Positions 12,615 through 46,925 of a DNA stretch of 64,000 nt are shown piece after piece. This stretch comes from Eledone cirrhosa (lineage: Eukaryota), in contig OZ024746.1 in NCBI GenBank assembly GCA_964016885.1, positions 44,888,001 to 44,952,000 on the forward strand, given 5' to 3'. Made by a program: the position numbers and the translations under genes. Every line of letters begins with the position of its first letter. The first letter of the stretch is position 1. The notes beneath the pieces are model-generated. The model saw nothing but the letters and a program-made list of their open reading frames with translations, did no database searches and was not told where the DNA came from.

Positions 12615-12649
12615 GTGGTCTTTCCCATCTTTTCCACTCTATTTTAAAC

Positions 12650-15600: not shown

Positions 15601-16068
15601 TTGCCAGTTCGGGATAAACTCTACAGGCATGGAGGTGCCGTCAGCCGGGCATGTCCGAGATGCGCGCAGGGCGACGAAACCGTCCTGCACGCACTCGTCC
15701 AGTGTCCGAAAATTGCTGACTTGTGGGTTTATGTCGAACACCTGCTGTCGCGTTTAGGACGGATCCAGCTATCATCTGAGTCTATCGTGAGGATTGCCCC
15801 GCCCTCCTCCTTTAGCCGGGAAGGGCAGGCAGTTTTTATCTGTCTGGTGGCCATGGCGAAAGAGATAGTATGGTGGACACGTTTGAAAGGGCTGAAGACG
15901 AGCACTTACCTCTTCGGTGATGCTCTGATTGACTTTTTCAAATTTCATTTGAAAAGGAAAATCAGAGTAGAGAAGGAAGTGCTCTCTTCCCAGCATTTTG
16001 TTGAAAGATGGGTGAGAGAAGCAAGAATGGCCCGAGTGAATGGGCCGACTCTGAGTATATATCTGTAA
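12650..16068 (+). pseudogene. Tx1 ORF2 (APE endonuclease + RT + C-terminal CCHC), frameshift near 13916 and TAG at 15589-15591
   Basis: SINARGL, ISETR, VGDWN, LDR, TDH (APE); KAFD, RQGCPLS, YADD (RT); CPRC..ETVLHALVQC. Lesions seen by comparison with copy 2. Confidence 0.92.
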
Positions 16069-16562
16069 ACTAAAGGTGGAAAACTGGGAGAGGGCACTTG
16101 CCTTGGTGGTCAGGGTCATTGTGGCTTTTTACTGGGCTTTCTCCACAAATGTCCCTCCGAAGTCTCCCCCCTATTGGGGAATTTTTCATTGTTATTTTTG
16201 TTACATCCTCTGTTTTTGTTTTGTACACGCAGAAATGCCCATTTGTACCGTCCTGCATTGTCCTGCACTGTCCTTAATGTCTACTTTATGTAAACCCTTG
16301 TGGTTAATAAAGAAATCATTATTATTATTAATATTATTATTATTATTGAATGCCATGGTTGACGGAGGCTCGGCTCTGTAAGGTATAGTAATTTTTAACC
16401 GTTAAAACAATTGTAAATTGTTTAAAACTTGAACCAAATTGTTGATAAAGACAACCTCCTCCTCGTGAGAGGTGTCTTTCTGTCCGTTATTTGGCCCTTC
16501 GGGGTTAAATAACCAGTTATTGGGGTTTTGTACCCAAAATTTCATTTTAAACAAAAAACAAC

Positions 16563-18659
16563 ATGGCTACGAAAAAGAAATTGTATACGTCACTCCCACT
16601 CATTCCGTCTTCTTCTTCCTCAATCATCACTACAGCAGAGAGAAGATTGTCTCTCTCCCTCCCTTCTTTAAATGTGTCTCTCTCCCTCCCTTCTCTTTCG
16701 CAAGTGACGAAAGAAAAGAAAAGTCTCGTGCAAAGCGTGCAAGGTTTCTCCACGACGACGACGACAGCGACGAAACAGGTGTGCGGGAAATACGAAAACC
16801 CAGTTCATTCGTCTGACGTCAGGAATAATAGCAGTAGCAGCCGTAATAACAACTGCAACAGTGACAATGAAAACAACAGTAGCAGCCGCAACAGCATCAC
16901 CAGCAGCATAAACAACAACAGCATTAGCAGCAGCAACACCAACAACAACCACAGCAACAGCGGCGGAGGCAGTAGTCGTAGTACCTGCAGCAACAACAAA
17001 AGTACCAGCAGCTCTGACGACAACAACAACAGCAGAGAAAAACCAATCTCATTTGCAGGTATTGCGAAAAACTTGGAAACAATCCTCATAACAAATGAGG
17101 AATTAGAGGAAGCGAAGAAGATGGTGACAAAGAACGGACACCGAGCAATCTGCAAGGCAGCGAAAAAATTTTTCGAAACCCAAGAGCACTGTACGGTCAC
17201 GTACCGTACAGTAAGTACAAAATCCCGTAGGGTGGAAAGAGCCACAGAGGCCCAAATACAAAAAGCCTTGGGGTCTGTGTGGCAGCGGAAAACGCACATC
17301 ACCCGAGGCAAAAAATATGCCACCGTAGACGTACTTTTTGCCACACCCCAGGAGGCAAAGGCCCAATCAGTAGTGACCCTAAGGAGCGAGGAAATGGTGT
17401 TGGTGCCCTCCTACTGTGGGCAAAAAATTGTGAGGGTCAAACTGACCCACGTCCCCCCCGGAATGACCCCTTCTTGGCTGGCCGCGTCTGTCCTCGTCGG
17501 AATCGAGGACAAAACAACTGTACTGCAAGTACAGAAAAAAGTAAGAGAAGATTGGGTCGGCTCCTCCATTGAGATGCTAATCCAAACCAACCAGGAGTGC
17601 ATCGAAGCTATCCCGGATGTGATAGACTTCGATAACGGCACTCAACTGCCCATAAGTGTTGAGGGCAAACGCCCGAAATGCTTTCGCTGTGGATCGAAGA
17701 CTCACCTCAGGGCCTTCTGCAACGAGAAGACCCTGAGAAAGGAGAAAACCCCCCTCCTTCCGAATCCGGCTCCACGGCTACCAGCAACAGGACAAGCGGC
17801 AACCAGGAACGATAGGCAAGTGGCACCCATACCCACTCCACGGAAATCAAAAACAGCAGCAGCAGTGGAAATACTAACAACAACAACAGCAATACCAAAT
17901 GCAGCTGCAACAGAGACTCCAGTGCAAACATCACCAACAACAACAAGTGAAAGAGTGGAGTTGGTACCCCTCCCCGACCTCACAGAATCAGACATGGAGT
18001 GTGAGGTGGGAGAGAGATGGCAAAAGGTCGTAAGAAGGCACAAACGCAGAAGCAGCGCATCGTCGCCTTTGAAAAGGGAGGAAAGAAATGAGAAAAGGGT
18101 AAAGTCTACTGCAAAGAGACCCACAGCAGCAACAACACCAACACCATCACCACCCACACTAGCACCACCATCACCACCGGCGACAACCCCACCGCCAACA
18201 ACACCTTCAACACCACCACCACAAGCACCAACATCGCAAACACAACAACAAAACACACACACCCAGCAACAACGACAAGAAAATAGTAGAACCACACCCC
18301 ACCCCCAGAAAAACAAATGCACGGCAATAAATACACACAACAAGAAACTAATGACTTACATAATTGAACACACAGACATTTCACAACAGGACTACATAAT
18401 ACCAGCACCAATCAAAACGCCAACTAACATAAGACTGCTAAAAATAGCACAGAAACAATACACAAATATTAAAACGAAATTCCCCAACGCAGTTGGTGAT
18501 TTCAGGGACCTAGGAGGAACCATCAATCGAAGAGTATACTCAGACATTCTCTTAGAAGAGCCGACGACCAGCCGAAGGGACGATTCAACGGTCCCTTCAC
18601 CAGACGATCAAGTGAAAAGGGATGTAAAAACCATCCCTCCTCTACCAAAAGTACGGTAA
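16563..18659 (+). CDS. Tx1 ORF1p type A (698 aa)
   Basis: Open ORF with CCHC knuckle. Confidence 0.9.
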   Translation: MATKKKLYTSLPLIPSSSSSIITTAERRLSLSLPSLNVSLSLPSLSQVTKEKKSLVQSVQGFSTTTTTATKQVCGKYENPVHSSDVRNNSSSSRNNNCNSDNENNSSSRNSITSSINNNSISSSNTNNNHSNSGGGSSRSTCSNNKSTSSSDDNNNSREKPISFAGIAKNLETILITNEELEEAKKMVTKNGHRAICKAAKKFFETQEHCTVTYRTVSTKSRRVERATEAQIQKALGSVWQRKTHITRGKKYATVDVLFATPQEAKAQSVVTLRSEEMVLVPSYCGQKIVRVKLTHVPPGMTPSWLAASVLVGIEDKTTVLQVQKKVREDWVGSSIEMLIQTNQECIEAIPDVIDFDNGTQLPISVEGKRPKCFRCGSKTHLRAFCNEKTLRKEKTPLLPNPAPRLPATGQAATRNDRQVAPIPTPRKSKTAAAVEILTTTTAIPNAAATETPVQTSPTTTSERVELVPLPDLTESDMECEVGERWQKVVRRHKRRSSASSPLKREERNEKRVKSTAKRPTAATTPTPSPPTLAPPSPPATTPPPTTPSTPPPQAPTSQTQQQNTHTQQQRQENSRTTPHPQKNKCTAINTHNKKLMTYIIEHTDISQQDYIIPAPIKTPTNIRLLKIAQKQYTNIKTKFPNAVGDFRDLGGTINRRVYSDILLEEPTTSRRDDSTVPSPDDQVKRDVKTIPPLPKVR

Positions 18660-18694
18660 GTGGTCTTTCCCATCTTTTCCACTCTATTTTAAAC

Positions 18695-21600
18695 ATGACC
18701 TCACTCAGAATAGGCAGCATAAATGCGCGTGGCTTGGGGTCGTCATGGAAGCAGGGTCACCTGCTCAACGACCTCAGGTCACTAAACATAGATGTAGTGG
18801 CCATCAGCGAGACCAGAATCTCCGAAGCACGGGCCTTCGCACCGATCTTCGGCGGCTACGATGTGTACGCATCTCCCAGCCGTCCTGGATCGGGTGGAGG
18901 AGTTGCTGTACTTTTTCGGAGAGATTTGGATCTCGCCATACGGGCCATCTTCCTGGACCCAGAGGGTAAGCTGGTGGTGCTGGACGTGACCAGCGGAGAC
19001 GGGCAAGCTTTCAGGCTAGTGGCCGTCTATGCCCCGACAGGAGCAGGGCGGCCTGATTTCTTCCGGCGTCTGGAGACCTTTCTTGGAACGTCCCGCTCTT
19101 TAGTGTTAGTGGGCGACTGGAACGGGATCTTAGATGCACGCTGGGACTGTGTGGGATTAGCGGATAGGGGTGGAGGGTGCAAGAGCCTCACCAACCTGCT
19201 CAGGCGTTTTGAACTGTCTGACAGGTACCGATTGGATTTCCCGAATGTGCCAATGTGGACTTGGACAAACCGCATAGGGTCATCCAGATCATATCTAGAT
19301 AGAGTATTTTGTAGGGAAATAGATAGGTCTAGCATAGGCTGTCCACAATTCAAGATAGTCAGCTACACGGACCACAAATTCGTGACCTGTGTGCTTGACT
19401 TAGATAGGCTTCATAGACGAGGACCCGGCTACTGGAAGCTAAACGCGTCCTTACCAGCGCGCAAGGCCTACAGAGACCGGATTAGCGAACTAGTTAAGCG
19501 GGCGTTGACGGGGGCCATCGTCAACAACAAGTGGTGGTTTGCTCTGAAAAGAGCGATTAGAATAGAATCGATTAGGTTTAGTAAGGCTTTAGCAATAGAG
19601 AAAAATAGAGCAGAGGGAGAACTAGTTAGAAAATTAGACGAGGCGCTTAGCAAAGGCATTGCGACCGACGTGCTTGCGGCGAAATTGGCCCTTGACCAAT
19701 TCTTCAATGCAAAGCACGAAGGCTGCGTTGTCAGAGCTAGGGTGCGTGCTCTCAGACACGAGGGGACAAAAGCCGTTCAATGGGCCCGAGTGGCGGAGGC
19801 GCGTCGTGGCAACAAAGCCACGATCCGGTCTTTGGTGGACCACGACGGGCGCATGCTACTCGATCCCGGGCAAATGTGTGAAGCTTTTCAGCGACACTTC
19901 GCTCAGCTGTTCGGGGGCAGCGGGGGGCCGGGTAGAGGGATGGACTTTAGTGTCTACCTCGACGGACTGCCGCGGCTCTCGGCCACTGAGGCGAGGTGTT
20001 GCGAAAAGCCGATAACAGCCGCTGAAGTACGGGAGGCAATGACTGGCTGCACAAGGGGTAAATCGCCTGGTTTGGATGGTCTGCCCTATGAACTTTACGT
20101 ACAGATGCCAGACTTGTTCGGAGGCCTCTTGGCGGACGTCTACTGCAACTGGCAACAGAACGGGAGAATTCCCAGTTCTGTGAGCCGAGGTGCGGTGGCA
20201 CTGCTGAGAAAGGATCCGAACAAGGGGGATAACATAGACAATTTCCGGCCCATAACTCTGCTAAACACAGAGTTTAAGATTTTGGCCAAGGTGCTAGCAA
20301 AGAGGTTGGCGCTTGTCGTTGGTGGTCTGGTGGGAGAGGCGCAGACATGCGCCATACCCGACAGATCCATCCACGACAACCCCCACCTCATGCGATACAT
20401 CGTAGAGAGGGTGGCTAGGGAACCTGGCACGGGTGGGTCCTTGATCAATTTAGATCAGTCGAAAGCTTTCGATAGGGTCGACCATCGTTACCTAGCGGCA
20501 GTCCTGAGGGCGGCTGGCTTTGGGCCCGTCTTCAGAGGCTGGATCGCTGCCATGCACAGCGACATCTGCTCTGTGGTGAGAGTGAACGGTCACCTGTCGG
20601 AACCGTTCAACATCATGCGCTCGGTCCGCCAAGGATGTCCCCTCTCGTCCCTCTTGTACGTATTGACTCTCGAGCCATTACTGCACAAACTGGAGACGTT
20701 GAGGGGAGTCCCGCGCGAACTAGGATGCGGAAGATCCGTGTCAGCATATGCCGACGATGTCACCGTAGTGGTGTCGAACGCCAAACACATCGAGGCGATC
20801 GGCACTACACTAAGAGAATACGAAGCGGTGACAGGAGCAATGATCAACCAGGAAAAGTCAGTGGGCCTGCAGCTCGGCACCTGGAGAGGCAGGTCCATGC
20901 CGTCCAACAGCGTCGTCGGGCGCTGGACGGACGGACCGGTTAAATTACTATGGGTCTGGTTCGGTCCGGACCTCCAGACGGACAAAAACTGGGACGAGGT
21001 GACGAGCAGGGTGGCTTCTCTTACCCAGAAATGGGCGGAGAGGAAGCTATCCCTGAAAGGTCGAGCGGAGGTGGCTAACGCGTACATCGCGTCTGTCATC
21101 TGCTACCGCCTAACCGTCGTACCTTGTCCTAAGCCTCGCCTGACTGCGCTGGAGCGTTTGCTCTTTCGCTTTTTGTGGAAGGGACGTGCTCCGATGGTCA
21201 GGCGGTCCATCTGTTGTCAACACCCGCTACGTGGAGGGCTGGGCATGCCGTGGCTGATGATGCGCAGGCACGCGCTCAGGCTACGACATCTCCACCTCTT
21301 CCTCGACGGTGATCAGGTGTGGTCGCCGTTTGCTAGACGCGTTTTTCCCCAGCTCGTTTCCTTGACGGAGCTGCAGTCCTGGGTCAAGCGAAGACCGAGA
21401 GGGAGCGCCTGGAGACTGGAATGTCTTCAGGCGCTCACAGCCCTCGACCAATCGGGCAATGTGATCGGTGGAAACTCCACCTCGGCGTTCTATAGAGGAT
21501 TAGTGGAGGGGAAGAGCGACGACGTACTTGGGGAAACTCTAGGCGTCGACGAAAATCAACTAGCCAATCTCTTCGGAAGAACTTTCGGGCCAGGGCCTAT

Positions 21601-22114
21601 GGACAACTTCCAGAAATCTCTGGCCTGGCAGTGCTACCGAGGAGCCTTGCCAGTTCGGGATAAACTCTACAGGCATGGAGGTGCCGTCAGCCGGGCATGT
21701 CCGAGATGCGCGCAGGGCGACGAAACCGTCCTGCACGCACTCGTCCAGTGTCCGAAAATTGCTGACTTGTGGGTTTATGTCGAACACCTGCTGTCGCGTT
21801 TGGGACGGATCCAGCTATCATCTGAGTCTATCGTGAGGATTGCCCCGCCCTCCTCCTTTAGCCGGGAAGGGCAGGCAGTTTTTATCTGTCTGGTGGCCAT
21901 GGCGAAAGAGATAGTATGGTGGACACGTTTGAAAGGGCTGAAGACGAGCACTTACCTCTTCGGTGATGCTCTGATTGACTTTTTCAAATTTCATTTGAAA
22001 AGGAAAATCAGAGTAGAGAAGGAAGTGCTCTCTTCCCAGCATTTTGTTGAAAGATGGGTGAGAGAAGCAAGAATGGCCCGAGTGAATGGGCCGACTCTGA
22101 GTATATATCTGTAA
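18695..22114 (+). CDS. Tx1 ORF2p, APE-RT-zinc finger (1139 aa)
   Basis: Uninterrupted ORF with the APE and RT motifs, including YADD. Confidence 0.95.
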   Translation: MTSLRIGSINARGLGSSWKQGHLLNDLRSLNIDVVAISETRISEARAFAPIFGGYDVYASPSRPGSGGGVAVLFRRDLDLAIRAIFLDPEGKLVVLDVTSGDGQAFRLVAVYAPTGAGRPDFFRRLETFLGTSRSLVLVGDWNGILDARWDCVGLADRGGGCKSLTNLLRRFELSDRYRLDFPNVPMWTWTNRIGSSRSYLDRVFCREIDRSSIGCPQFKIVSYTDHKFVTCVLDLDRLHRRGPGYWKLNASLPARKAYRDRISELVKRALTGAIVNNKWWFALKRAIRIESIRFSKALAIEKNRAEGELVRKLDEALSKGIATDVLAAKLALDQFFNAKHEGCVVRARVRALRHEGTKAVQWARVAEARRGNKATIRSLVDHDGRMLLDPGQMCEAFQRHFAQLFGGSGGPGRGMDFSVYLDGLPRLSATEARCCEKPITAAEVREAMTGCTRGKSPGLDGLPYELYVQMPDLFGGLLADVYCNWQQNGRIPSSVSRGAVALLRKDPNKGDNIDNFRPITLLNTEFKILAKVLAKRLALVVGGLVGEAQTCAIPDRSIHDNPHLMRYIVERVAREPGTGGSLINLDQSKAFDRVDHRYLAAVLRAAGFGPVFRGWIAAMHSDICSVVRVNGHLSEPFNIMRSVRQGCPLSSLLYVLTLEPLLHKLETLRGVPRELGCGRSVSAYADDVTVVVSNAKHIEAIGTTLREYEAVTGAMINQEKSVGLQLGTWRGRSMPSNSVVGRWTDGPVKLLWVWFGPDLQTDKNWDEVTSRVASLTQKWAERKLSLKGRAEVANAYIASVICYRLTVVPCPKPRLTALERLLFRFLWKGRAPMVRRSICCQHPLRGGLGMPWLMMRRHALRLRHLHLFLDGDQVWSPFARRVFPQLVSLTELQSWVKRRPRGSAWRLECLQALTALDQSGNVIGGNSTSAFYRGLVEGKSDDVLGETLGVDENQLANLFGRTFGPGPMDNFQKSLAWQCYRGALPVRDKLYRHGGAVSRACPRCAQGDETVLHALVQCPKIADLWVYVEHLLSRLGRIQLSSESIVRIAPPSSFSREGQAVFICLVAMAKEIVWWTRLKGLKTSTYLFGDALIDFFKFHLKRKIRVEKEVLSSQHFVERWVREARMARVNGPTLSIYL

Positions 22115-22376
22115 ACTAAAGGTGGAAAACTGGGAGAGGGCACTTGCCTTGGTGGTCAGGGTCATTGTGGCTTTTTACTGGGCTTTCTCCACAAATGTCC
22201 CTCCGAAGTCTCCCCCCTATTGGGGAATTTTTCATTGTTATTTTCATTGTTATTTTTGTTACATCCTCTGTTTTTGTTTTTTTACACGCAGAAATGCCCA
22301 TTTGTACCGTCCTGCATTGTCCTGCACTGTCCTTAATGTCTACTTTATGTAAACCCTTCTGGTTAATAAAGAAATC

Positions 22377-22432
<56 letters not shown>

Positions 22433-22433
<1 letters not shown>

Positions 22434-23420
22434 AGTTGCATATTATCTTGCTTTATGTTCATACGAGTTATCACCAAGTCACAACCAGTGACCTCAAGAG
22501 ACAACAAGGTCCGCCATGTTCAAGAAAGAACACACATACACACACATGCATCTTTAGGTTTTTAGACTTGTGATGTACTTATATTGACAGAATCTTCCTT
22601 AATATATGGGCAGTTCCCATTAGTACTATCTTTTTTATTTCTCATATACGTGGGTTTCTTGGGATTTGCAATAAGTAATCATTAGACCCCTTAGGTATCA
22701 TTCCTAGACCGCCTACAACCACTGGTATCGTTTTAGTTCTCAATTTCCACATTTTTCCAATTTCTATCTCCAGGTCCTTATACTTGCTCAATTTTTCAAA
22801 TGTTTTTATAGATACATTCTTCTCTATTGGAACGGACATATCAATTAGCAGGCATACCCTCTTTTTAAAATCCTTCAGTATTATATCAGGACTATTTGCA
22901 TCTATGTTTCGGTCTGTTTGGATACTAAAGTTCCACAAGATTGAGATGTGATCTTTTTCAAGTACGGGCGGTGGTTGATGCTCCCACCAATTCTTTTGAT
23001 GGGGCAGGTCAAAATGCTTACACATTATCCAATGTATGTATTGCCTGTTTAGGTATTCGGTTGGAGCTATAGGACTGCACATTGAAATTATATGATCAAT
23101 GGTCTCTGGTTGTTTTTTTACATACACGGCATAATGGGTTGCATCCATTTATTATTATGTTGTCTTGGTAATTTTTTGTTGGCAGACACTGATCTTGTGC
23201 TGATATAATTTGTCCTTCAGTCTCCTATTTCAGTCCAGAGGATGCCAACCACTGATGGTTTAAAGTTTTGTCAATATCAGGATTGTTAGCTCTTATTTCC
23301 CATACAGAGGCTTTTCTTGCCATTTCTTAGCCAATTTCTGTAGCAGTTCTTTCTTTGCAGTTACTTTTACCTGCTTTGCTTTTTATGTGTTTTTCATTTC
23401 AGCAGTAAATGAACTTCTGT
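22433..23420 (-). mobile_element. R4/Dong-like family B, second 5'-truncated copy (RLE domain + 3'UTR)
   Basis: Collinear with 8370-9380 with substitutions and indels. (ATT)n on both sides (22377-22432 and 23421-23448). Confidence 0.9.
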
Positions 23421-23661
23421 AATTATTATTATTATTATTATTATTATTGGTTATCATTACAAAACGGTGGTAACTACGGCGGAGTAAGCTGGTTGAATTA
23501 TTATGAGTTATCGAGTGTTCTAATAATATATGTTTACATCGGTATGTAGTCAAAGAGCCCCTCTGTCAAAGGAAGTGGTTTTTTTAACTGTATCTCGCGC
23601 GCTTGAGGGCAACATTTGCTTTTATTTACAATCATAACCCCAAAATAAAAAAAATAAAAAC

Positions 23662-25501
23662 ATAGCGGACAAAAAAATTGTCCACAGGGAGGAACAGCGA
23701 GTTGTTCAGAGGGTGGAACAGCCATTTCCACCCAATCACAAGGCAAAGTAAAAATCAAGAGAAACAGCAGCAGCAGCGACAGCGACAGTGATAATGATAT
23801 CAGCAGCAGCTGTCCCTGGAACAGTAGTTGAAGTAGTGAAAATTATAACGAAAAATTTCCTGCGTTACAGAAATCAAACACCACTACCACCCCAATAACA
23901 ACAATAACAACAGCAACAACCACAAATAACCCAAAGAACAACAACTATAACAGCAGCAACACAGAGGAAAAAGAAACAAACAAAAACACCGGCGACGGCA
24001 ACAAAGACAAAACTAGTGACGTGCCAACACAACTCAAAACAAACACGTCTTTCGCGAAAGCGATCAACAAGTTTGAGCAAATAAACATCACTAACGAAGA
24101 GATAAAACAAGCAAAGCTCTTGGTAAAAAAAAACCGGACACAGAGTAAGACTCAGCTGAGATAATAAGAAACAAACTTTTGTGTTCGGTCAGTTATCGCA
24201 CGATCGGATCAAAATCCAGGCGAGTTGAACGGGCAACGAATTCACAGATCCAACGAACTATGGGTGTCGTCTGGGCATAGAAAACATATATAGCCCAGGG
24301 ATCGAGATATGGCACTGTGGAGGTGCTCTTAGCTACACCAGAGAAAACCAGAGCACACTCCATTGCACCACTCCTCAGCGACGAAATCACAATGATGCCC
24401 ACATATTGCGGCCAGAGAGTCGTGAGGGATCGAGTAGGCCAGGTTCCACCCTCAGTGGAGATGGCGTGGTTGACGTCAGCGGTCCTCGCTGACGTTGAAG
24501 ATTCAACAACCATACTCAACGTCATACAAATAAGACACTAAAATTGGACAGAGTCGGGGATGGAGCTAATCATCCAAGCAAACCACGAAAGCGTTGAGGC
24601 CATCCCCGATGTAATAGACCTGGACGACGGTAGCCATCTACCCGTGACTGTCGAAGGTAGGCACCCAAGGTGTCATGGATGCGGTGACAAGACGCACCTT
24701 AAGGCATTCTGCCCCAAAATTACCAAAAGAGGCACGCGCCCACCCCTTCTCCCCACGCCGTGCCCCGCAACTGGAGCAGACAAACAAACAAAGAACACAG
24801 TGGCAGAAGAGAAATCACCATCCCCAACAACAAAAACACCATCTCTTCTACCACCCACAAAACCAATGGAAAGCATACCCCTTCCTGATATAGCCAAATC
24901 GGACAACGAGTGCGATGAGGCTGAAGAGTAGAGAATTATTCCAACAAAAAAAAGGAAGAACTCCCTACCCTGATCCCCCCCCCAACAAAAAAGAGGAAGA
25001 AAGAACCTTAAAAAAAAGTAAATGAAAATTACCCCACCTCCTCCACCACCATCAACAGACACACACCCACAATCACATACACCATCTCCACCACCACCAA
25101 CACCACCACCACCCTTACCATCTACACCATCGTCAACTCCAACCACACGACAGCAAACACAGAAAACACAACACCCAAACAGCAGACACAATACACAGCC
25201 ATAGACACAGACAACACAAAGCTTTTAAATTACATTCAACACCACACCAACATCACAGAAACAAGCTACGTACAAACCACCAAAATCCCCCCCCCACACA
25301 CACACACACACAAACACATAAAAATAATAGAAATTACACAAAAAAAATTACATAACATTAAAAAAAATGTTCCCCACATCAATTGGAGACCACCGAGGGA
25401 ACATCACCAGAAGAATATTCACGGATATTCTCGTGGAGAAACCCACCAATGGAAGGAGGGATGGATCACCCACCCCCTTCTAAAAGAAGAGCCACAGGTA
25501 A
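23662..25501 (+). pseudogene. Tx1 ORF1 type B, disrupted
   Basis: Fragments ..PTYCGQRVVR.., ..VEGRHPRCHGCGDKTHLKAFC and ..RRIFTDILVE.. are homologous to type A. Start coordinate approximate. Confidence 0.8.
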
Positions 25502-25551
25502 TTTGTTTGTACCTCTCCCCTCTCAGTTGTTTAAATCCTATCTTAGCCAAC

Positions 25552-28500
25552 ATGGCTACTCTCAGAATAGGTAGCATAAATGTACGTAGCCTGGGGTCAT
25601 CTTGGAAGCAGAGAAACCTGCTGAACGATCTCAGGTCGCTAAACATAGATGTGACGGCCATCAGCGAGACCAGAATCTCCGAGGCACGGGCCTTCGCACC
25701 GATCTTCGGCGGCTACATTGTGTACGCATCTCCCAGCCATCCTGGATCGGGGGGATGAGTTGCTGTGCTTTTCCGGAGAGGTTTGGATCTCGCCATACGG
25801 GCCAACTTCCTGGTGCTAGACGTGACCAGCGGAGACGGGCAAGCTTTCAGGCTAGTGGCCGTCTATGACCCGACAGGAGCAGGGCGGCCTGATTTCTTCC
25901 GGCGTCTGGAGACCTTTCTTGAAACGTCCCGCTCATTAATGTTAGTGGGCGACTGGAACGGGATCTTAGATGCACGCTGGGACTGTGTGGGATAAGCGGA
26001 TAGGGGAGGAGGGTGCAAGAGTCTCACCAACCTGCTCAGGCCTGTTGAACTGTCTGACCGGTACCGATTAGATTTCCCGAATGTGCCAATGTGGACTTGG
26101 ACAAACCGCATAGGGTCATCCAGATCATATCTAGATAGAGTATGTTGTAGGGAAATAGATAGGTCTAGCATAGGCTGTCCACAATTCAAGATAGTAAGCT
26201 ACACGGACCAGAAATTCGTGATCTGTGTGGTTGACTTAGATAGGCTTCATAGACAAGGACCCGGCTACTGGAAGCTAAACCCTTCCTTACCAGCGCGCAA
26301 GGCCTACAGAGACCGGATTAGCGAAATAGTTAAGCTGGCGTTGACGGGGGCCATCGTCAACAACAAGTGGTGGTTTGCTCTGAAAAGAGCGATTAGAATA
26401 GAGTCCATTAGGTTTAGTAAGGCTTTAGCTATAGAGAAAAATAGAGCAGAGGGAGAACTAGTTAGAAAATTAGACGAGGCGCTTAGTAAAAGCATCGCTA
26501 CCGTCGTACTTGCGGCGAAATCGGCTCTTGACCAATTCTTCAATGCAAAGCACGAAGGCTGCGTTGTCAGACCTAGGGTGCGTGCTCTCAGACACGAGGG
26601 TACGAAAGCCGTTCAATGGGCCCGAGTGGCGGAGGCGCATCGTGGCAACAAAGCTACGATCCGGTTTTTTGATTGACCACGACGGGCGCATGCTACTCGA
26701 CCCCGGGAAAATGTGTGAAGCTTTGCAGCGACACTTTGCTCAGCTGTTCGGGGCCAGCAGCGTGCCGGATCGAGGAATGGACTTTAGTGCCTACCTGGAC
26801 GGACTGCCGCGGCTCTGCCGAAGGACTGTTGCGAAAAGCCGATAACAGCAGCTGAAGTACGGGAGGCAATGACTTGCTGCACAAGTGGTAAATCGCCTTG
26901 TTTGGATGGTATGTCCTATGAAATTTACGTACAGATGCCAGACTTGTTCGGAGGCCTCTTGGCGGACGTCTACTGCAACTGGCAACAGAACGGGAGAATT
27001 CCCAGCTCTGTGAGCCGAGGAGCGGTGGCGCTGCTGAGAAAGGATCCGAACAAGAGGGATAACATAGATAATTTCAGGCCCATAACTCTGCTAAACACAG
27101 AGTTCAAGATTTTGGCCAAGGTGCTAGCAAAGAGGTTGGCGCTTGTCGTTGGTGGTCTGGTGGGAGAGGTGCAGACATGCGTCATTCCCGACAGATCCAT
27201 CCACGACAACCTCCGCCTCATGCGATACATCGTGGAGAGGGTAGCTAGGGAACCTGGCACCGGTGGATCTTTGGTCAATTTAGATCAGTCGAAAGCTTTC
27301 TATAGGGTCAACAATCGTTACCTAGCGGCAGTCCTAAGGGCGGCTGGCTTTGGGCCCGTCTTTAGAGGCTCGATCGCTGCCATTCACAGCGACATCTGCT
27401 CTGTGGTGAGAGTGAGCGGTCACCTTTCGGAACCGTTCAACATCATGCGCTCGGTCCGCAAAGGATGTCCCCTCTCGTCTCTCTTGTACGTATTGACTCT
27501 CGAGCCATTACTGCACAAACTGGAGACGCTGAGGGGCGTCCCACGCGAAGTAGGATGCGGAAGATCCGGGTCAGCAAATGCGGATGATGTCACCGTAGTG
27601 CTGTCGAACGCCAAACACATCGAGAATACGAAGCGGTGACAGGAGCAATGATCAACCAGGAAAAGTCAGTGGGCTTGCAGCTCGGCACCTGGAGAGGCAG
27701 GTCCATGCCGTCCAACAGCGTCGTCGGACGCTGGGCTGACCGGTTAAATTGCTAGGGGACTGGTTCGGTCCGGACCTCCAGACGGACAAAAACTGGGACG
27801 AGGTGACGAGCAGGGTGGCTTCTCTCACCCAGAAATGGGCGGAGAGGAAGCTATCCCTGAAAGTTCAGCGGAGGTAGCTAACGCGTACATCGCGTCTGTC
27901 ATCTGCTACGCCTGACCGTCGTACATTGTCCTAAGCCCCGCCTGACTGCGCTGGAGCGTTTGCTCTTTCGCTTTTTGTGGAAGGGACGCGCTCCGATGGT
28001 CAGGCGGTCCATCTGCTGTCAACACCCGCTACGTGGAGAGTTGGGCAGTTCGTGACTGATGATGCGCAGACACGCGCTCAGGCTACGACATCTCCACCTC
28101 TTCCTCGAGGGTGATCAGGTCTGGTCGCCGTTTGCTAGACACGTATTTCCCTAGCTCGTTTCCTTGACGGAGCTGCAGTCCTGGGTAAATCGAAGACCGT
28201 GAGGGAGCGCCTGGAGACAGGAATGTCTTCAGGCTCTCACAGCCCTCGACCAATCGGGCAATGTGATCGGTGGAAACTCCACCTCGGCGTTCTATAGAGG
28301 ATTAGTGGAGGGGAAGAGCGACGACGTACGTGGGGAAACTCTAGGCGTCGACGAAAATCAACTAGCCAATCTCTTCGGAAGAACTTTCGAGCCGGGACCT
28401 ATGGACAACTTCCAGAAATCTCTGGCCTGGCAGTGCTACCGAGGAGCCTTGCCAGTTCGGGATAAACTCTACAGGCATGGAGGTGCCGTCAGCCGGGCAT

Positions 28501-28916
28501 GTCTGAGATGCGCGCAGGGCGACGAAACCGTCCTGCACGCACTCGTCCAGTGTCCGAAAATTTCTGACTTGTGGGTTTATGTCGAAGACCTGCTGTCGCG
28601 TGTAGGACGGATCCGGCTATCATCTGAGTCCATCGTCAGGATTGTCCCGCCCTCTTCCTTTAGCCGGGAAGGGCAGGCAGATTTTATATGTCTGGTGGCC
28701 ATGGCGAAAGAGATAGTATTGTAGACACGTTTGAAAGGGCTGAAGACGAGCACTTACCTCTTCGGTGATGCCCTGATTAACTTTTTCAAATTTCATTTGA
28801 AAAGGAAAATCAGGGTAGAGAGGGAAGAGCTCTCTTCCCAGCATTTTGTTGAAAGATGGGCGAGAAAAGCAAGAATGGCCCGAGTGAATGGGCCTACTCT
28901 GAGGACGTATCTGTAA
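25552..28916 (+). pseudogene. Tx1 ORF2, disrupted
   Basis: Runs from MATLRIGSIN.. to ..GPTLRTYL* in multiple frames. YADD reads NADD. Confidence 0.9.
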
Positions 28917-29164
28917 ATTAAAGGTGGAAAACTGGGAGAGGGCACTTGCCTTGGTGGTCAGTGTCACTGTGGCCTTTTACTGGGCTTTCTCCACAAATGT
29001 CCCTCCGAAGTCTCCCCCCTATTGGGGAATTTTTCATTGTTATTTTTTTGTTACATCCTCTGTTTTTGTTTTTTACACGCAGAAATGCCCATTTGTACCG
29101 TCATGTATTGCCCTGCACTCTCCTTAATGTCTACTTTATGTAAACCCTTGTGGTTAATAAAGAA

Positions 29165-29206
<42 letters not shown>

Positions 29207-29413
29207 GGCCACCTACGTAGTAAATCGTTTCATCGTGAGCTCCGCAAAGGTTTGTTATTTCCGTTTGTTAAAAATTGTCATTTATGGAAAATGTTATTGT
29301 TAACTGTTTATAAGCGCACATACATTGTTTTCCGAAAAGGACACCCAAAAAGATTGGGGCCTTGTGCCCAAAATTTAAACTTTTATTATTATCAAAAAAT
29401 TTCTTTGAAAAAA

Positions 29414-31408
29414 ATGGCTAATTCACCTCTGCAACAAGCAGCTGAAAGCCTTCCTCACAAATTAACACCTCACACCGACACCACCATTGTAAATGTTACT
29501 ACGTTTGCCAACACAAAAAAAATATAAGCAGTAGCAATATTTTAAATTTGTCTCAGGCAGACATTCATTTCCCGCCATTACCAATGACTGCAGGTCTTAA
29601 AGCCTCCACCACCACCACCACCGTGACAACCACCACCCCCACCACCACCGCGACAACAGAAACAAAAGAAGAAAAAAATAAATTAACTCGTGATGTCGAA
29701 ATGAAATCAAGCAAAATGGACTCTTCCCCACCAAAGACGACTGACGTCACCACCACCACAACTGAAACTAAAATTAATATTAACACAAATAACGATAGCA
29801 ACAACAACAACAACAATGACATTATAAAACCGACCCTCAGTTTCGCCATAGTAGCAAAACAGTTTGAAGCATTCACGGTAACTCAGGAGGATTTAGAAAA
29901 TGCCAAACAAATGGTAAAGAAAGATGGGTACAGGGTCAGCCTCACCCCCCCCCTATTAAAATGGAGCATCGGCGCCTATGCACCGTGTCGTATAGAACAA
30001 TAAATGTAAAATCGCGCCGAGTGGAACGGGCATCCGAGTCCCAAATCCAAAAAGCTTTGGGACATGTGTGGGCAAGAAAAACCCACATCAGACGTGGGCA
30101 AAAGTATGGAACCGTGGATGTGTTCTTTGAAACACCAGAGGAGGCTAGAGAACACTCCATGGCCCCATTGAAAAGTGACGACTTCACACTCGTCCCAAGC
30201 TATTGTGGCCAGAGACTCGTAAAGATCAGGGTGACCCACGTTCCACCGGCCATCGAAATTCCCTGGCTAATAGCGGCTGTCCTCGCCGGCATCGAAGCCA
30301 ACACGAAAATAATAGCAATAGCAAAAGAAAAGCATGAGAAGTGGTCCGGATCTGGGATGGAGCTCCTGATCCAAGCGGACCAAAAAAGCATTGAGGAGAT
30401 CCCAGAGGTAATAGACCTCACTGACGGCAGCTACCTCACGGTAATTGTCGAGGGCAGAAGACCTAGGTGTGTCGTTTGTGGTGAAGGAACCCACCTAAGG
30501 GCTTTCTGCCCTCAGGCTAAAAGGTTGAGGCCACCTCTCCTACCTACCCCAGTGACACAACCATCAACACCACCAGTAGCAGAGATGGCAGCAACAACTG
30601 TAGCAGCAACAACAGAAGCAACTATAACAGCAACAACCCCAGCAACAGTAGCAAAACCAACACCACTACCACCACCAGCAAAACCAACACCACCACCACC
30701 CAACGCTTCAGAACTAGCACCAGTGCCTACACCATCCACCACACCACAACCAAAACTAACGGCTGTGGAGGATTTTCCACTCCCCGGCCTATCACAACTG
30801 GAGACAGATTGTGACGACGAGGAGTGGGAAACGATATCCGGAAAAAAAGAAGAAACCAAAAAAGAAAAAATTCTCTTCCTTCCCCCTCCAAAAACAAAAT
30901 ACAGAGGGAAACAAATAAATTAAGAAACAAAAAAGTTAGGACAGATATGCCACCATCCACACCAGCATCACCAACCCCATCAACCCAAACACCAACACCA
31001 TCACCATCATTAACCCCAGCACCACCATCACCTACACCACAAAAGTCACCAAAATGCGAAACAGAAACAAACCCACAACAATGGCAAACAAAACAAAACA
31101 ACCAAAACGATACACACTACACAGCATTAAATTTGAACAACAAGCAATTATTACACTACATCCAACACAACACCAGCTTCACAGAAAAAGACTACACAAC
31201 AACCCCAAAATTCACACCACCTCCACACATACAAATCACTCGCATCACACAGAAAACGTACATGACACTAAAACAAAAATTCCCCAAAGACATCGGAGAC
31301 TTCGGACAAGCACTCTCCAGGAGGATTTATAAGGACATCCTTCCTGAGGAGGCCACAAGCAGTGAAAAGGATGGAAAAACCGTCCTTCCCCTACGAGAAG
31401 TAAGGTAA
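29414..31408 (+). pseudogene. Tx1 ORF1 type C, frameshifted mostly at homopolymer runs
   Basis: MANSPLQ.. start, VEGRRPRCVVCGEGTHLRAFC knuckle, ends ..PLREVR*. Confidence 0.82.
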
Positions 31409-31442
31409 GTGGTCTTTCCCATCTTTTCCACTCCTTTTCAAC

Positions 31443-34400
31443 ATGACCTCACTCAGAATAGGCAGCATAAATGCGCGTGGCTTGGGGTCGTCATGGAAGC
31501 AGGGCCACCTGCTCAACGACCTCAGGTCACTAAACATAGATGTAGTGGCCATCAGCGAGACCAAAATCTCCGAAGCACAGGCTTTCGCACCGATCTTCGG
31601 CGGCTACGATGTGAACGCATCTCCCAGCCGTCCGGGATCGGGGGGAGGAGTTGCTGTGCTTTTTCGGAGAGGTTTGGATCTTGCCATACGGGCCATCTTC
31701 CTGGACCCAGAAGGTAAGTTGTTGGTGCTGGACGTGACCAGCGGAGACGGGCAAGCTTTCAGGTTAGTGGCCGTCTATGCCCCGACAGGAGCAGGGGGGC
31801 CTGATTTCTTCCGGCGTCTGGAGACCTTTCTTGGAACGTCCCGCTCTTTAGTGTTAGTGGGCGACTGGAACGGGATCTTCGATGCACGCTGGGATTGTGT
31901 GGGATTAGTGGATAGGGAAGGAGGGTGCAAGAGTCTCACCAACCTGCTCAGACGTTTTGAACTGTCTGACAGGTACCGAATGGATTTCCCGAATGTACCA
32001 ATGTGGACTTGGACAAATCGGATAGGGTCATTCAGATCATATCTAGATAGAATATTTTGTAGGGAAATAGATAGGTCTAGCATAGGCTGTCCACAATTCA
32101 AGATAGTCAGCTACACGGACCACAAATTCGTGATCTGTGTGCTTGACTTAGATAGGCTTCATAGACGAGGACCAGGCTACTGGAAGCTAAACGCGTCCTT
32201 ACCAGCGCGCAAGGCCTACAGAGACCGGATTAGCGAACTAGTTAAGCGGCCTTGACGGGGGCCATCGTCAACAAGAAGTGGTGGTTTGCTCTGAAAAGAG
32301 CAATTAGAATAGAGTCCATTAGGTTTAGTAGGACTTTAGCAAAAGAGAAAAATAGAGCAGAGGGAGAATTAGTTAGAAAATTAGATGCGGCGCTTAGCAA
32401 AGGCATCGCGACCGACGTACTTGCGGCGAAATTGGCCCTTGACCAATTCTTCAATGCAAAGCACGAAGGCTGCGTTGTCAGAGCTAGGTTGCGTGCTCTC
32501 AGACACAAGGGGACGAAAGCCGTTCAATGGGCCCGAGTGGGGGAGGCGCGTCGTGGCAACAAAGCCACGATCCGGTCTTTGGTGGACCACGACGGGCGCA
32601 TGCTACTCGATCCCGGGCAAATGTGTGAAGCTTTTCAGCGACACTTCGCTCAACTGTTCGGGGGCAGCGGCGGGCCGGATCGAGGGATGGACTTTAGTGT
32701 CTACCTCGACGGACTGCCGCGGCTTTCGGCCACTGAGGCGGAGTGTTGCGAAAAGCCGATAACAACCGCTGAAGTACGGGATGCAATGACTAGTTGCACA
32801 AGGGGTAAATCGCCTGGTTTGGATGGTCTGCCCTATGAACTTTACGTACAAACTTTACGTACAAACTTTACGTACAAACTTGTTCGGAGGCCTCTTGGCG
32901 GACGTCTACTGCAACTGGCAACAGAACGGGAGAATTCCCAGCTCTGTGAGCCGAGGAGCGGTGGCGCTGCTGAGAAAGGATCCGAACAAGGGGGATAACA
33001 TAGATAATTTTAGGCCCATAACTCTGCTAAACACAGAGTTCAAGATTTTGGCCAAGGTGCTAGCAAAGAGGTTGGCGCTTGTCGTTGGTGGTCTGGTGGG
33101 AGAGGCACAGACATGCGCCATTCCCGACAGATCCATCCACGACAACCTCCACCTCATGCGATACATCGTAGAGAGGGTAGCTAGGGAACCTGGCACGGGT
33201 GGGTCTTTGATCAATTTAGATCAGTCGAAAGCCTTCGATAGGGTCGACCATCGTTACCTAGCGGCAGTCCTGAGGGCGGCTGGCTTTGGGCCCGTCTTCA
33301 GAGGCTGGATCGCTGCCATGCACAGCGACATCTGCTCTGTAGTGAGAGTGAAAGGTCACCTTTCGGAACCGTTCAACATCATGCGCTCGGTCCGCCAAGG
33401 ATGTCCCCTCTCGTCCCTATTGTACGTATTGACTCTCGAGCCATTACTGCACAAACTGGAGACGTTGAGGGGGGTCCCGCGCGAACTAGGATGCGGAAGA
33501 TCCGTGTCAGCATATGCCGACGATGTCACCGTAGTGGTGTCGAACGCCAAACACATCGAGGCGATCGGCACTACACTAAGAGAATACGAAGCGGTGACAG
33601 GAGCAATGATCAACCAGGAAAAGTCAGTGGGCCTGCAGCTCGGCACCTGGAGAGGCAGGTCCATGCCGTCCAACAGCGTCGTCGGGCGCTGGACGGACGG
33701 ACCGGTTAAATTGCTAGGGGTCTGGTTCAGTCCAGACCTCCAGACGGACAAAAACTGGGACGAGGTGACGAGCAGGGTGGCTTCTCTCACCCAGAAATGG
33801 GCCGAGAGGAAGCTATCCCTGAAAGGTCGAGCGGAGGTGGCGAATGCGTACATCGCATCCGTCATCTACTACCGCCTGACCGTCGTACCTTGTCCTAAGC
33901 CCCGCCTGACTGCGTTGGAGCGTTTGCTCTTTCGCTTCTTGTGGAAGGGACGCGCTCCGATGGTCAGGCGGTCCATCTGCTGTCAACACCCGCTACGTGG
34001 AGGGCTGGGCATGCCGTGGCTGATGATGCGCAGACACGCGCTCAGGCTACGACATCTCCACCTCTTCCTCGACGGTGATCAGGTGTGGTCGCCGTTTGCA
34101 AGACGCGTTTTTCCCCAGCTCGTCTCCTTGACGGAGCTGCAGTCCTGGGTCAAGCGAAGACCGAGAGGGAGCGCTTGGAGACTGGAATGTCTTCAGGCGC
34201 TCACAGCCCTCGACCAATCGGGCAATGTGATCGGTGGAAACTCCACCTTGGCGTTCTATAGGGGATTAGTGGGGGGGGGGAGCGACGACGTACTTGGAGA
34301 AACTCTAGGCGTCGACGAAAACCAACTAGCCAATCTCTTCGGAAGGACTTTCTATGGACAACTTCCAGAAATCCCTGGCCTGGCAGTGCTACCGAGGAGC

Positions 34401-34869
34401 TTTGCCAGTTCGGGATAAACTCTACAGGCATGGAGGTGCCGTCAGCCGGGCTTGTCCGAGATGCGAGCAGGGCGACGAAACCGTCCTGCACGCACTCGTC
34501 CAGTGTCCGAGCATTGCTGACTTGTGGGTTTATGTCGAACACCTGCTGTCACGTGTAGGACCTATCCAGCTATCAGCTGAGTCCATCGTGAGGATTGCCC
34601 CGCCCCCTTCCTTTAGCCGGGAAGGGCAGGCAGTTTTTATCTGTCTGGTGGCCATGGCGAAAGAGATAGTATGGTGGACACGTTTGAAAGGGCTGAAGAC
34701 GAGCACTTACCTCTTCGGTGATGCCCTGATTAACTTTTTCAAATTTCATTTGAAAAGGAAAATCAGGGTAGAGAGGGAAGTGCTCTCTTCCCAGCATTTT
34801 GTTGAAAGATGGGTGAGAGAAGCAAGTATGGCTCGAATGAATGGGCCTTCTCTGAGTATGTGTCTGTAA
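31443..34869 (+). pseudogene. Tx1 ORF2, frameshifts near 32250, 32850 and 34352
   Basis: Pieces 31443-32255, 32252-32998, 32823-34418 and 34354-34869 are collinear with copy 2 ORF2. Confidence 0.92.
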
Positions 34870-35115
34870 ATTAAAGGTGGAAAACTGGGAGAGGGCACTT
34901 GCCCTGGTGGTCAGGGCCACTGTGGTCTTTTAATGGGCTTTCTCCACAAATGTCCCTTGGAAGTCTCCCCCCTATTGGTGAATTTTTCTTTGTTATTTTA
35001 TTTCAACCTCTGTTTTTTTACACGCAGAAATGCCCATTTGTACCGTCCTGTATTGTCCTGTACTGTCCTTAATGTCTACTTTATGTGAACCCTTGTGGTT
35101 AATAAAGAAAACATT

Positions 35116-35154: not shown

Positions 35155-35798
35155 GCTGTTGTGCTATTTTATTTAGCTCTGTTCTGTTTCTCTATTGCCG
35201 GATTCAGGCCTTGAATCTAGGGCAATAGATGCTCTTATTGTGAACTCGTCTGAGAATGTGTGCTGTTCCTAGTATCCCGATCTTCTGTAGCTCATATTTG
35301 CTGATCTTGCAGAGCAAAATGCTAAGGTGCAGGTTTGAGGATTTGGGTGTTAATCCTAATGCTCCTATTACCACGGGGATAGCGTTTGTAGCCATCCTCC
35401 AAGGACTTCATACTTTTACTTAATAGCTGTTACGTTGTCTGCCACCTTGAAGATATTTAGGCTTTTGGTTATCCAAGAATCAGTAACCATGTCAAATGCC
35501 TTCTTGTAATCTATCCATCCCATGGCTAGACCGGTATGCCTCCTCTTGCAATTCCTTATTACCATCTTATCAATGATTAACTTGTCTTTTGTACCATGGG
35601 ACTTCTTTCGGCATCCTTTCTGTTTGTCCAGCAATAAGTTGTTTATGTGGAGGTGATAGTAGATTTTCTCAGACACAATGCTTGTTAGTAGATTCCACAT
35701 TACGTATAGATATGTGATAGGCTTATAGTTAGTAACCTCATACCCTTGATTTGGTCTTTCATGACCAGATCTGTGGTACCTTTTGTCAACCACTCTGG
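35155..35798 (-). mobile_element. R4/Dong-like remnant: family-A RT fragment (35400-35798) joined to an RLE 3' end (35155-35398)
   Basis: EWLTKGTT..NYKPIT..WIDYKKAFD matches 6840-7225. IPVVIGALG..LQKIGILGTAHILRRV is an RLE terminus. Confidence 0.82.
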
Positions 35799-35807
35799 TA
35801 TTATTAT

Positions 35808-42297: not shown

Positions 42298-42423
<126 letters not shown>

Positions 42424-42494
42424 AAGAAAAAGGGATGAAATCGAAAATGCAACTGAAGTCTTATTTTTTTAAAAGTATATATATTTATTTGATT

Positions 42495-42532
42495 CCTTTA
42501 CCGGTTTCGCAGTTCTTCTGCTTTTCAAAAGG
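42495..42532 (-). ncRNA. Minimal hammerhead-like motif (variant core TTGAAAA)
   Basis: Reverse complement of 47731-47768. Confidence 0.6.
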
Positions 42533-43044
42533 TGAGTTGAGATGGAGGGTCTGTGGTTTTTCTCACATCTGGTTGGTCTCTAAATGTTACTTGTTTTATA
42601 TGGAAAAACTGGCTCGAAAACCAAGTTTTTCGAGAAGTAATTTGATTGGTTTGTCAATAATTATAATAAATTTCGCGCCAGTTCGCGTTACAATAGTTCT
42701 TCAAATAAGAGAGGGGGGGGGTTTGTCACAGGTTGTTTTTTCATATATGAGTGTTTGAATTTCTTTTTACTTGAAAAAATGAGGCTCACGAAGGCTTTTT
42801 TTTTGGTTGGTTATAAATGAAATTTGGCTGTCACGTGAACAAGTTTTCATTACATTTTTGCGCCCTTATTTGGAAAACTATTCTGTAGTCTATAGTGAAT
42901 GTTATGACGATGGAGAGATAGTGGTCAAGGGAAAAGGGATTGGGAGAAATGTTCTGGTTCAGTGAATATGGCCAGCTGTCAGAGTTCAGGTGTCAGAGTT
43001 CAGATTTTCTATTGAGACTGAAGATATGTGTTTATTTGTGTGCT

Positions 43045-43083
<39 letters not shown>

Positions 43084-43333
43084 ATTGGAAGATGATTCTA
43101 TTAGTAGAGATGGGGGAGGGAGTTGTGTGTGTGTGTATATGGGTGTTATGTGTGTGTGTGCGAGTATGTTAGATAGAGAGAATATATATTTTTTGTGTGT
43201 GTGTATATATATATGTGTGTAGGAAAGTGGTTCTATTAGTAGAAATGGGGAGGGTGTTGTAGGTGTGGGGGTTTTTATGTGTGTGTATGGGTGTTATGTG
43301 TGTGGGAGTATGGTTAGCATGTTAAGATGAAGA

Positions 43334-43374
<41 letters not shown>

Positions 43375-43578
43375 GTGTGTGTATGTGTGTGTGTAGGAAA
43401 ATGATTCCTTTAGTAGGAATATTTTTGAATGAACATATTTTCCTGACTTTTTCGTGTTTGCTGTTGTATTGCCAGTGCAAACGTATGTTTAAGGTTTATT
43501 TAGTTCGGGTTTTTATTTTCTAAAGTAGGTGTTATGTGTGTGTGTGTATGTCATATTGTGGTGTTGACATAATGTATA

Positions 43579-45420: not shown

Positions 45421-45425
45421 AATGA

Positions 45426-46886: not shown

Positions 46887-46925
<39 letters not shown>

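Follow-up and report, generated by a model that had tools for sequence, protein, structure and literature searches.

We analysed 64,000 nt of the Eledone cirrhosa contig OZ024746.1 (the window, whose positions give the coordinates used here), which holds four full-length copies of an L1/Tx1-type long interspersed nuclear element (LINE), all on the + strand, and one 3' stub. The copies carry three types of open reading frame 1 (ORF1), termed A, B and C, upstream of closely similar ORF2 and 3' untranslated regions (3'UTRs). Exchange of ORF1 is very probably real in this element. The explanation that we regard as probable is that three old, homologous 5'UTR-ORF1 modules stand on one recently shared ORF2-3'UTR module, and that the young 3' module captured its front ends by template switching. 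A preliminary description of this DNA had proposed such a modular exchange, and the proposal is supported by the contrast in synonymous divergence between the two ORFs and by conflicting trees in a related family.

Divergence of ORF1 and ORF2 between the types

The copies and their reading frames are as follows.

10304-16318, + strand: copy c1A, type A, full-length; intact ORF1 (10518-12614); ORF2 starts at 12650 and has a single frameshift near 13920
16348-22380, + strand: copy c2A, full-length type A; both ORFs open
16563-18659, + strand: type A ORF1 (c2A), 698 amino acids
18695-22114, + strand: ORF2 of c2A, 1139 amino acids; apurinic/apyrimidinic endonuclease (APE)-type endonuclease, reverse transcriptase (RT) and zf-RVT
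23449-29167, + strand: copy c3B, type B, full-length but decayed, both ORFs being interrupted by stops and frameshifts
23662-25501, + strand: type B ORF1, broken, with its knuckle at 24671-24712; start uncertain, with no ATG at the likely position
29208-35112, + strand: copy c4C, full-length type C; a few frameshifts
29415-31408, + strand: type C ORF1, broken by frameshifts, with its knuckle at 30468-30509
31443-34869, + strand: ORF2 of c4C
7989-8349, + strand: 3' stub, a fifth copy of the same LINE

Nor is the end of the type B ORF1 certain, given an in-frame stop or an indel 5 codons upstream of the Arg-stop. The three CCHC knuckles quoted in the preliminary description were recovered, at 17679-17720, 24671-24712 and 30468-30509.

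The ORF2 and 3'UTR showed 93-95% identity between types and 99% within type A (c1A and c2A are 98.9% identical). Their earlier characterisation as near-identical therefore needs qualification, since the proportion of synonymous sites that differ (pS) in ORF2 was 0.09-0.12 between types (1018-1132 codons), and the synonymous changes are lineage-specific, so that these are not copies of one unit. In ORF1, on the other hand, identity between types was only about 50-70% in 100-nt windows. The marked divergence previously reported for the ORF1 N-termini and cores was thus confirmed, but homology between the three types is evident in the core (52-59% protein identity, 185-208 codons) and in the C-terminal domain (45-50%, 37-64 codons). 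The 5'UTRs had been described as impossible to align, which holds for most of their length; types A and C, however, have one 33-nt motif in common just before ORF1 (16518-16549 and 29352-29385), with a score reached in 0 of 1000 shuffles, and no such motif was found in common with type B.

Synonymous divergence of the two ORFs was compared in a check set beforehand. In the ORF1 core (185-208 codons), pS was 0.75-0.80 for A against B and C and 0.66 for B against C, and was therefore saturated, while ORF2 stood at about 0.10. This indicates that the two halves of the element have different histories. Non-synonymous divergence (pN) of the ORF1 core was 0.25-0.28 beside the saturated pS, which argues for purifying selection on ORF1.

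The contrast bears directly on an alternative in which ORF1 merely evolves fast on a clonal element with no recombination. LINE ORF1s are generally more variable than ORF2s (PMC4120745; this and the other papers are cited from excerpts of their text), as this alternative would have it. Nevertheless, saturation at synonymous sites is seen in ORF1 and not in ORF2, the change-points between the types are sharp, and two types of the related family described below (T4 and T5) show an ORF1 pS of 0.66 on ORF2s that are 99.9% identical. Within type A, moreover, the two ORFs have diverged at equal rates (17 differences in 2097 nt of ORF1, 24 in 3418 nt of ORF2), so that ORF1 is not hypermutable. We rejected fast ORF1 evolution on the synonymous contrast, and its probability is practically negligible.

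Switch points and the doubled ORF1 tail

The junctions between the modules, and the predicted 5' splice sites (donors) found near them, are listed here.

31361-31404, + strand: shoulder common to A and C (82% identity), where the shared module actually begins
18557-18655, + strand: tail of the type A ORF1, present twice; its own at about 18557-18610, followed by a C-like one at 18611-18655
25552-25655, + strand: B-specific start of ORF2; 82% amino acid identity, pS 0.39 over codons 1-40
25656-29167, + strand: shared ORF2 (to 28916) and 3'UTR in c3B
12611, + strand: predicted 5' splice site of c1A, same as in c2A; top of 316 sense GT
18653-18661, + strand: predicted 5' splice site ACG/GTAAGT at the c2A ORF1 stop; top of 318 sense GT
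25495-25503, + strand: predicted 5' splice site CAG/GTAATT at the type B ORF1 end; top of 286 sense GT
31402-31410, + strand: predicted 5' splice site AAG/GTAAGT at the type C ORF1 stop; tied first of 295 with 31714

Comparison of types A and C was best fitted by successive segments of 50%, 82% (31361-31404) and 96% identity, and a two-segment fit placed the breakpoint at 31361 (interval 31361-31398), about 45 nt before the ORF1 stop. The abrupt switch previously placed at the ORF1 stop is thus replaced by a graded one further upstream. The 8 differences among the 44 positions of the shoulder fit the synonymous divergence of ORF2 (p=0.06) and not the upstream level (p=2e-4), so a single switch about 45 nt before the stop suffices for A and C.

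Type A is longer than type C near the end of ORF1, and the ORF1 tail is present twice there. The first copy is most like the tail of type B (p=2.5e-4) and the second is C-like (p=5e-5), suggesting an out-of-register junction in type A near 18611. The own tail of type A stops just a few bases from the site that is homologous to the B donor and the C Arg-stop.

Type B switches at 25656 (support 25655-25668), in register and about 105 nt into ORF2, in agreement with the convergence near 25660 noted earlier. B-specific sites made up 19 of 103 positions before this point and 25 of 724 after it (Fisher p=1.4e-7), and the segment 25552-25655 may be a remnant of B's own ORF2. Relative to the donor, the switch points in the window lie at -45 and about +155 nt.

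Evolution of the types after the exchange

Changes in ORF2 private to one type numbered 26 synonymous and 6 non-synonymous in A, 43 and 36 in C, and 48 and 86 in c3B. The predominance of synonymous private changes indicates that A and C evolved under selection after their ORF2s split, and c3B looks like plain decay after insertion, from near the fork of A and C.

Contigs of four out of seven public runs (X1, X2, X5 and X7) were compared with positions 23450-31560 only. One X7 contig (record 30; study P4, organism label D) spans 31096-31560 with 9 differences and so connects the ORF1 of type C to ORF2. An X5 contig (record 15) continues from ORF2 into 672 letters unlike B, with no piece listed on C. 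B-like ORF1 pieces 87-89% identical to c3B were present in X2; cover of the type B ORF1 was absent in X5 and almost absent in X7, and was not used as evidence.

These data allow us to judge whether the types could be assembly chimeras, or single dead chimeras produced when a truncated insertion landed behind the ORF1 of another element. The region is repeat-rich, a nested-insertion route of this kind has been proposed (PMC4120745), and for c3B no bridging contig was among those listed and the private changes look neutral. Against this, one junction is common to two A copies, the C junction is bridged by a contig from another study, A and C show purifying selection after their split, and none of the module junctions carries an (ATT)n scar. 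We consider chimerism quite improbable, above all for A and C.

A related family with many upstream types

A search of GTDB contigs revealed head-to-tail arrays of a LINE relative with 41% ORF2 identity in one bin labelled bacterial (G001). In this bin an intact LINE of eukaryotic type occurs in 65 or more units, arranged head-to-tail with a period of 6.4-6.9 kb, and the arrays are likely to be host contamination of the bin. We analysed 38 of the 41 loci, leaving out L118, L119 and L121 as distant.

By their upstream sequence, the 52 distinct ORF2 starts of the main related family formed 11 clusters, with 50 of the starts typed. Five types had both ORFs intact; between these, ORF1 pS was 0.66-0.80 in 9 of 10 pairs and 0.33 in the remaining one, beside an ORF2 pS of 0.00-0.14. 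Pairs of types had ORF2s that were 99.9% (T4/T5), 100% (T7/T8) and 99.8% (T1/T2) identical beneath upstream sequences of 64-67% identity. Trees of ORF1 and ORF2 conflicted at starred nodes for T6 and T8 (T4 being absent from the ORF1 tree).

Switch points in 55 pairs of types, which are not independent, lay 65 to 628 nt before the ORF1 stop and grouped near -71, -120, -180, -205, -234 and -340. These staggered positions suggest that the clade as such exchanges modules repeatedly close to the 3' end of ORF1, over a zone and not at the donor. The preliminary description had instead placed a recombination or template-switch hotspot at the splice donor, which might come about if the reverse transcriptase switched to the 5' exon at the end that splicing sets free. 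The own tail of type A does end a few bases from the donor-homologous position, and a boundary donor is conserved in two of three families. However, the C-derived part of A starts 45 nt upstream of the donor, type B switches in register 105 nt inside ORF2, and none of the 55 pairwise switch points of the related family falls within 65 nt of the ORF1 stop. A donor-specific hotspot is therefore improbable, and the earlier claim finds no support in that form.

The arrays raise another possibility, namely concerted evolution at the DNA level. Each ORF1 module of a head-to-tail array has an ORF2-3'UTR on either side, so unequal crossing-over and gene conversion there would homogenise ORF2 and creep 5'-ward until divergence stops them, and ORF1 modules would persist as cassettes between conserved repeats. 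In the related family, ORF2 was at least 99.6% identical in 10 of 10 pairs of different types on the same contig, compared with 62 of 508 pairs across contigs; T4 and T5 alternate on contigs 14 and 18; and the switch points are staggered from -65 to -628, as this process would predict. The graded edges of the switch points in the window fit it too. The same-contig count, however, covered 35 of the 52 units, and its 10 pairs, all from three contigs, cannot be counted as independent. Within the window, the ORF2s of neighbouring types show a pS of about 0.10, which argues against local homogenisation, and the junction of type A is out of register. In addition, recombination among genomic copies mostly gives inactive elements, according to the excerpted text of PMC3600994. 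Taken together, concerted evolution appears somewhat unlikely as the general explanation. The related suggestion that the tandem array promotes exchange finds no support in the window, where A and C carry lineage-specific ORF2 changes and the C junction occurs in another study; it is plausible in the related family.

A model for the exchange

Template switching during reverse transcription, our preferred explanation, would allow a young 3' module to take the front ends of other families. Type A may have arisen when RNA of the C lineage was reverse transcribed through ORF2 and the last 15 codons of ORF1, followed by an out-of-register jump to the end of an A-type ORF1. Such a jump suits type A better than an in-register crossover, because the junction, with its doubled tail, is out of register. 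Both A and C would have continued to transpose after the exchange, and c3B would be an older in-register recombinant, perhaps a one-off. Switch points may lie near the 3' end of ORF1 because homology between families resumes there and a swap at this place leaves both proteins whole; the splice donor would not be the breakpoint.

Several observations weigh against this model. Only two exchange events are present in the window, and mosaicism inside the window ORF2s was not supported (runs p=0.19; best of three MaxChi p=0.035). Among the contigs listed, none connects the ORF1 of type B with the shared ORF2, and for type B template switching and DNA-level recombination are indistinguishable. Finally, array-level homogenisation fits the related family better, as judged from its 10 same-contig pairs.

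Predicted splice signals at the ORF boundary and in the 3'UTR

Approximate matrices based on consensus frequencies were used to score splice sites. In all four copies the highest-scoring of the 286-318 sense-strand GTs was the donor at the ORF1 stop (tied in c4C), and such a donor stands beside only 33 of 6419 stop-like triplets in the window. A 3'UTR acceptor was the highest-scoring sense AG of 397-440, again in all four copies (16232, 22291, 29082 and 35027), and is also present in the 3' stub. In c2A the site is:

22270-22291, + strand: predicted 3' splice site (pyrimidine tract, CAG) in the c2A 3'UTR, 73 nt before AATAAA

Were the ORF1-stop donor spliced to the 3'UTR acceptor, ORF2 (3585-3636 nt) would be lost, and 19 residues would be appended ahead of a stop. 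The spliced RNA would be a messenger for ORF1 only, and the unspliced RNA would give the ORF2 protein (ORF2p) and the template. We place such a copia-like, ORF1-only mRNA not far below an even prospect, judging from the splice signals. In the related family, AAG/GTAAGT follows the ORF1 stop in 52 of 52 units (one lineage) and ranks first in 10 of 11 types and second in T1; a pyrimidine tract with YAG lies about 250 nt past the ORF2 stop in 9 of 9 aligned types. Among 26 far relatives with 22-31% ORF2 identity, 20 had a candidate ORF1, and in 0 of these 20 was the donor at the ORF1 stop ranked first (best ranks 2 and 7).

The case for splicing must be set against a number of results. Antisense strands carry splice sites that are equally strong or stronger, and in the related family the YAG ranks with the best four acceptors for no more than 6 of 9 types. 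The 52 units represent a single lineage, and the matrices are approximate. A third family (L111, 2 units) lacks a strong donor at the ORF1 stop; it has a top donor 41 nt past the ORF2 stop, with strong acceptors in the 3'UTR. An intron-less junction of ORF1 to the 3' end gave 0 matches in the bin against 65 ORF1 ends, in a bin that covers only part of the DNA of its host.

No ORF1-only (HAL1-like) copy was found in the window. Neither a 52/68-nt nor an ORF2-spanning GT..AG joint was seen in the 15 joints listed of about 950, and contigs drop rare forms; the X1 contigs, whose RNA origin is a guess, had only scraps on ORF2. No RNA structure was detected in the 3'UTR (z 0.02) or at the junction (z -0.57), and no second donor above 1.4 bits was found past the ORF2 stop in the window family. 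In both related families a strong donor does lie shortly past the ORF2 stop, with strong acceptors deeper in the 3'UTR (L081, about 9485-9950; L111, 5473-5840). This predicts a 3'UTR intron in both, which a retrotransposon would be expected to lose. The main related family also has two poly(A)-like ends. A second good donor is located about 270 nt into ORF2, at 31714 (c4C), 12921 and 18966; in c3B the matching stretch has been lost through a 21-nt deletion.

The donor could alternatively be used for a short intron of 52-68 nt, ending at an AG in ORF2 codon 5. Donor and AG share one phase in all four copies, so the join would fuse ORF1 and ORF2 in frame. The acceptor, however, ranks only 10th to 45th of about 400 (scores -3.9 to 0.5), the donor of the related family lies past the stop codon, and no ORF1 relative of fusion length (1508-4305 amino acids) was found, albeit in a weak search. 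We regard this use of the donor as very improbable.

A more far-reaching reading, which we consider rather less likely than not, is that in a whole clade of LINEs a spliceosomal intron encloses ORF2, a copia-like mRNA encodes ORF1 only, and a pool of ancient ORF1-promoter modules is shuffled, as cassettes, onto a single shared ORF2. Each module would bring its own promoter and ribonucleoprotein (RNP) protein, and the boundary donor would keep the ratio of ORF1 protein (ORF1p) to ORF2p independent of the module.

Encoded proteins and classification

In the ORF2 of c2A, an N-terminal Exo_endo_phos, RVT_1 and a C-terminal zf-RVT exceeded the Pfam cut-off, and the best match among solved structures was human L1 ORF2p (4e-105), compared with 3e-38 for R2. 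The sequence of the element thus points to the L1 group of LINEs (L1/Tx1), and the Tx1 label is suggested by the ORF1 type and target preference. P0001, a 912-amino-acid ORF2, is 78% identical to that of c2A, an identity at which the original ORF2s of the A or B lineages, now lost, would be expected to lie.

The type A ORF1 comprises, in order, a low-complexity N-terminus, a predicted core of tandem RNA recognition motifs (RRMs), the CCHC knuckle, a P/T-rich linker and the conserved C-terminal domain. A model of the core (predicted local distance difference test score 86.6; 18 sequences) showed two RRM-like domains followed by one CCHC knuckle. Its best fold matches were tandem RRMs (E 2e-4), and look-alikes in a structure atlas were CCHC and ZCCHC3-type clusters (0.89-0.93). 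A Pfam scan of the window proteins found no RRM. From the model and the knuckle, ORF1 probably encodes an RNA-binding protein.

A profile search with ORF1 gave 592 matches, of which 150 were listed. Named ORF1 relatives are from Octopus sinensis, O. bimaculoides, O. vulgaris and Argonauta, which points to an octopod host. A word-index search with ORF1 gave no match, and no relative was found in the viral contigs searched. Thirteen recently active L1-Tx1 families have been described in O. vulgaris (PMC13282606). A loose motif for the C-terminal domain was present in 9 of the 150 relatives listed, two of which end in GK or GKS. P0103 and P0110 are full-length ORF1 relatives of octopod type that end in GK and GKS. 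Such ends are how a donor in another phase would be translated, and we mention this as a lead only.

Insertion sites and neighbouring elements

All four 5' ends and all five 3' ends of the LINE adjoin (ATT)n in the same orientation, at this one locus.

29168-29206, no strand: (ATT)13 between c3B and c4C
8350, 10285, 16318, 16333, 22381, 23422 and 35113: (ATT)n at the other ends

At the 3' ends (ATT)n could be the LINE's own tail, and the ends of the LINE merge with (ATT)n where a target-site duplication would be read. Two of the 5' (ATT)n repeats are preceded by an unrelated RT element in opposite orientation and are therefore not the tail of an upstream copy, which suggests that the array arose by repeated insertion into a microsatellite. 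The local array would thus reflect repeated (ATT)n target-site insertion and not be a cause of the exchange.

Truncated RT pieces with a C-terminal restriction-like endonuclease motif lie on the - strand at 8370-10284, 22432-23421, 35155-35800 and 5309-7980. They occupy the same (ATT)n tracts as the LINE, in opposite orientation, and we take them to be R4/Dong-like, with a presumed (TAA)n target. Two unrelated LINE clades thus appear to share one microsatellite target in the window. An open RT ORF of 689 amino acids at 61046-63115 (- strand) has 26-37% identity to these pieces. Further downstream of the array, an inverted pair at 42298-48011 (97.6% identity over 2591 nt, simple repeats at both bounds) encodes a Penelope-like RT and GIY-YIG ORF (43579-45420, - strand; 45498-46682, + strand).

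Significance and comparison with known systems

ORF1 proteins that are only 52-59% identical work with one ORF2 in the window, and in the distant family about ten modules stand on ORF2s that are up to 100% identical. This diversity implies loose co-adaptation of ORF1p and ORF2p. ORF1 and promoter diversity appears to be kept in the long term, as a host-restriction arms race would predict, and family counts based on RT overlook most of it. If the predicted splicing is true, it would give a LINE a simple means of setting the excess of ORF1p over ORF2p. Splicing in human SpIREs reportedly affects the 5'UTR and ORF1 and is a dead end.

Spliced L1 RNAs, including the human SpIREs, have been described (PMC5860796), and transcripts of L1, Tad, Penelope and antisense TART have been reported to contain introns (PMC1636488). 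The HAL1 elements are L1 derivatives that encode ORF1 only (PMC5753468); no such derivative was found in the window or in the bin. In copia and EVADE, splicing removes the enzyme region and yields abundant mRNA for the structural protein (PMC7197481), similar to what is predicted for the window LINE. Those are long terminal repeat elements with a single GAG-POL ORF in which splicing was shown, whereas here it is predicted, for a two-ORF LINE. Searches of an open-access library turned up no paper describing ORF1 cassette exchange in Tx1 or an ORF2-spanning LINE intron; subscription papers, Repbase notes and supplements were outside their scope.

With regard to insertion, Kibi, Koshi and crocodilian Tx1 are likewise APE LINEs of the L1 group inside simple repeats, and SINEU-3 forms tandem copies by sequential insertion (PMC4494074). 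That paper gives (TC)n, (TTC)n, (TTCC)n and (TTTC)n as targets, in contrast to (ATT)n here.

As for the exchange, CR1 and L2 resemble the window LINE in having a tree-like ORF2 and ORF1s exchanged between lineages (PMC4120745). Their transfers, as far as the excerpts go, are deep, at the level of clades, and often involve different ORF1 architectures, whereas the window LINE swaps one architecture (tandem RRM plus CCHC) recently, repeatedly and with mappable junctions. A close parallel is offered by mouse L1MdTf and L1MdGf, in which a young 3' end recruits an older 5'UTR-ORF1, RT strand switching was proposed and the breakpoints lie toward the 5' end of ORF2 (PMC3600994). The mouse families, however, were active within about the last 8 My according to that source, while the ORF1s of the window are 52-59% identical and synonymously saturated, and at least two recombinant lineages transposed side by side here. 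Exchange of L1 5' ends is thus already known; what appears to be new is its depth, its recurrence and the predicted ORF2-spanning intron.

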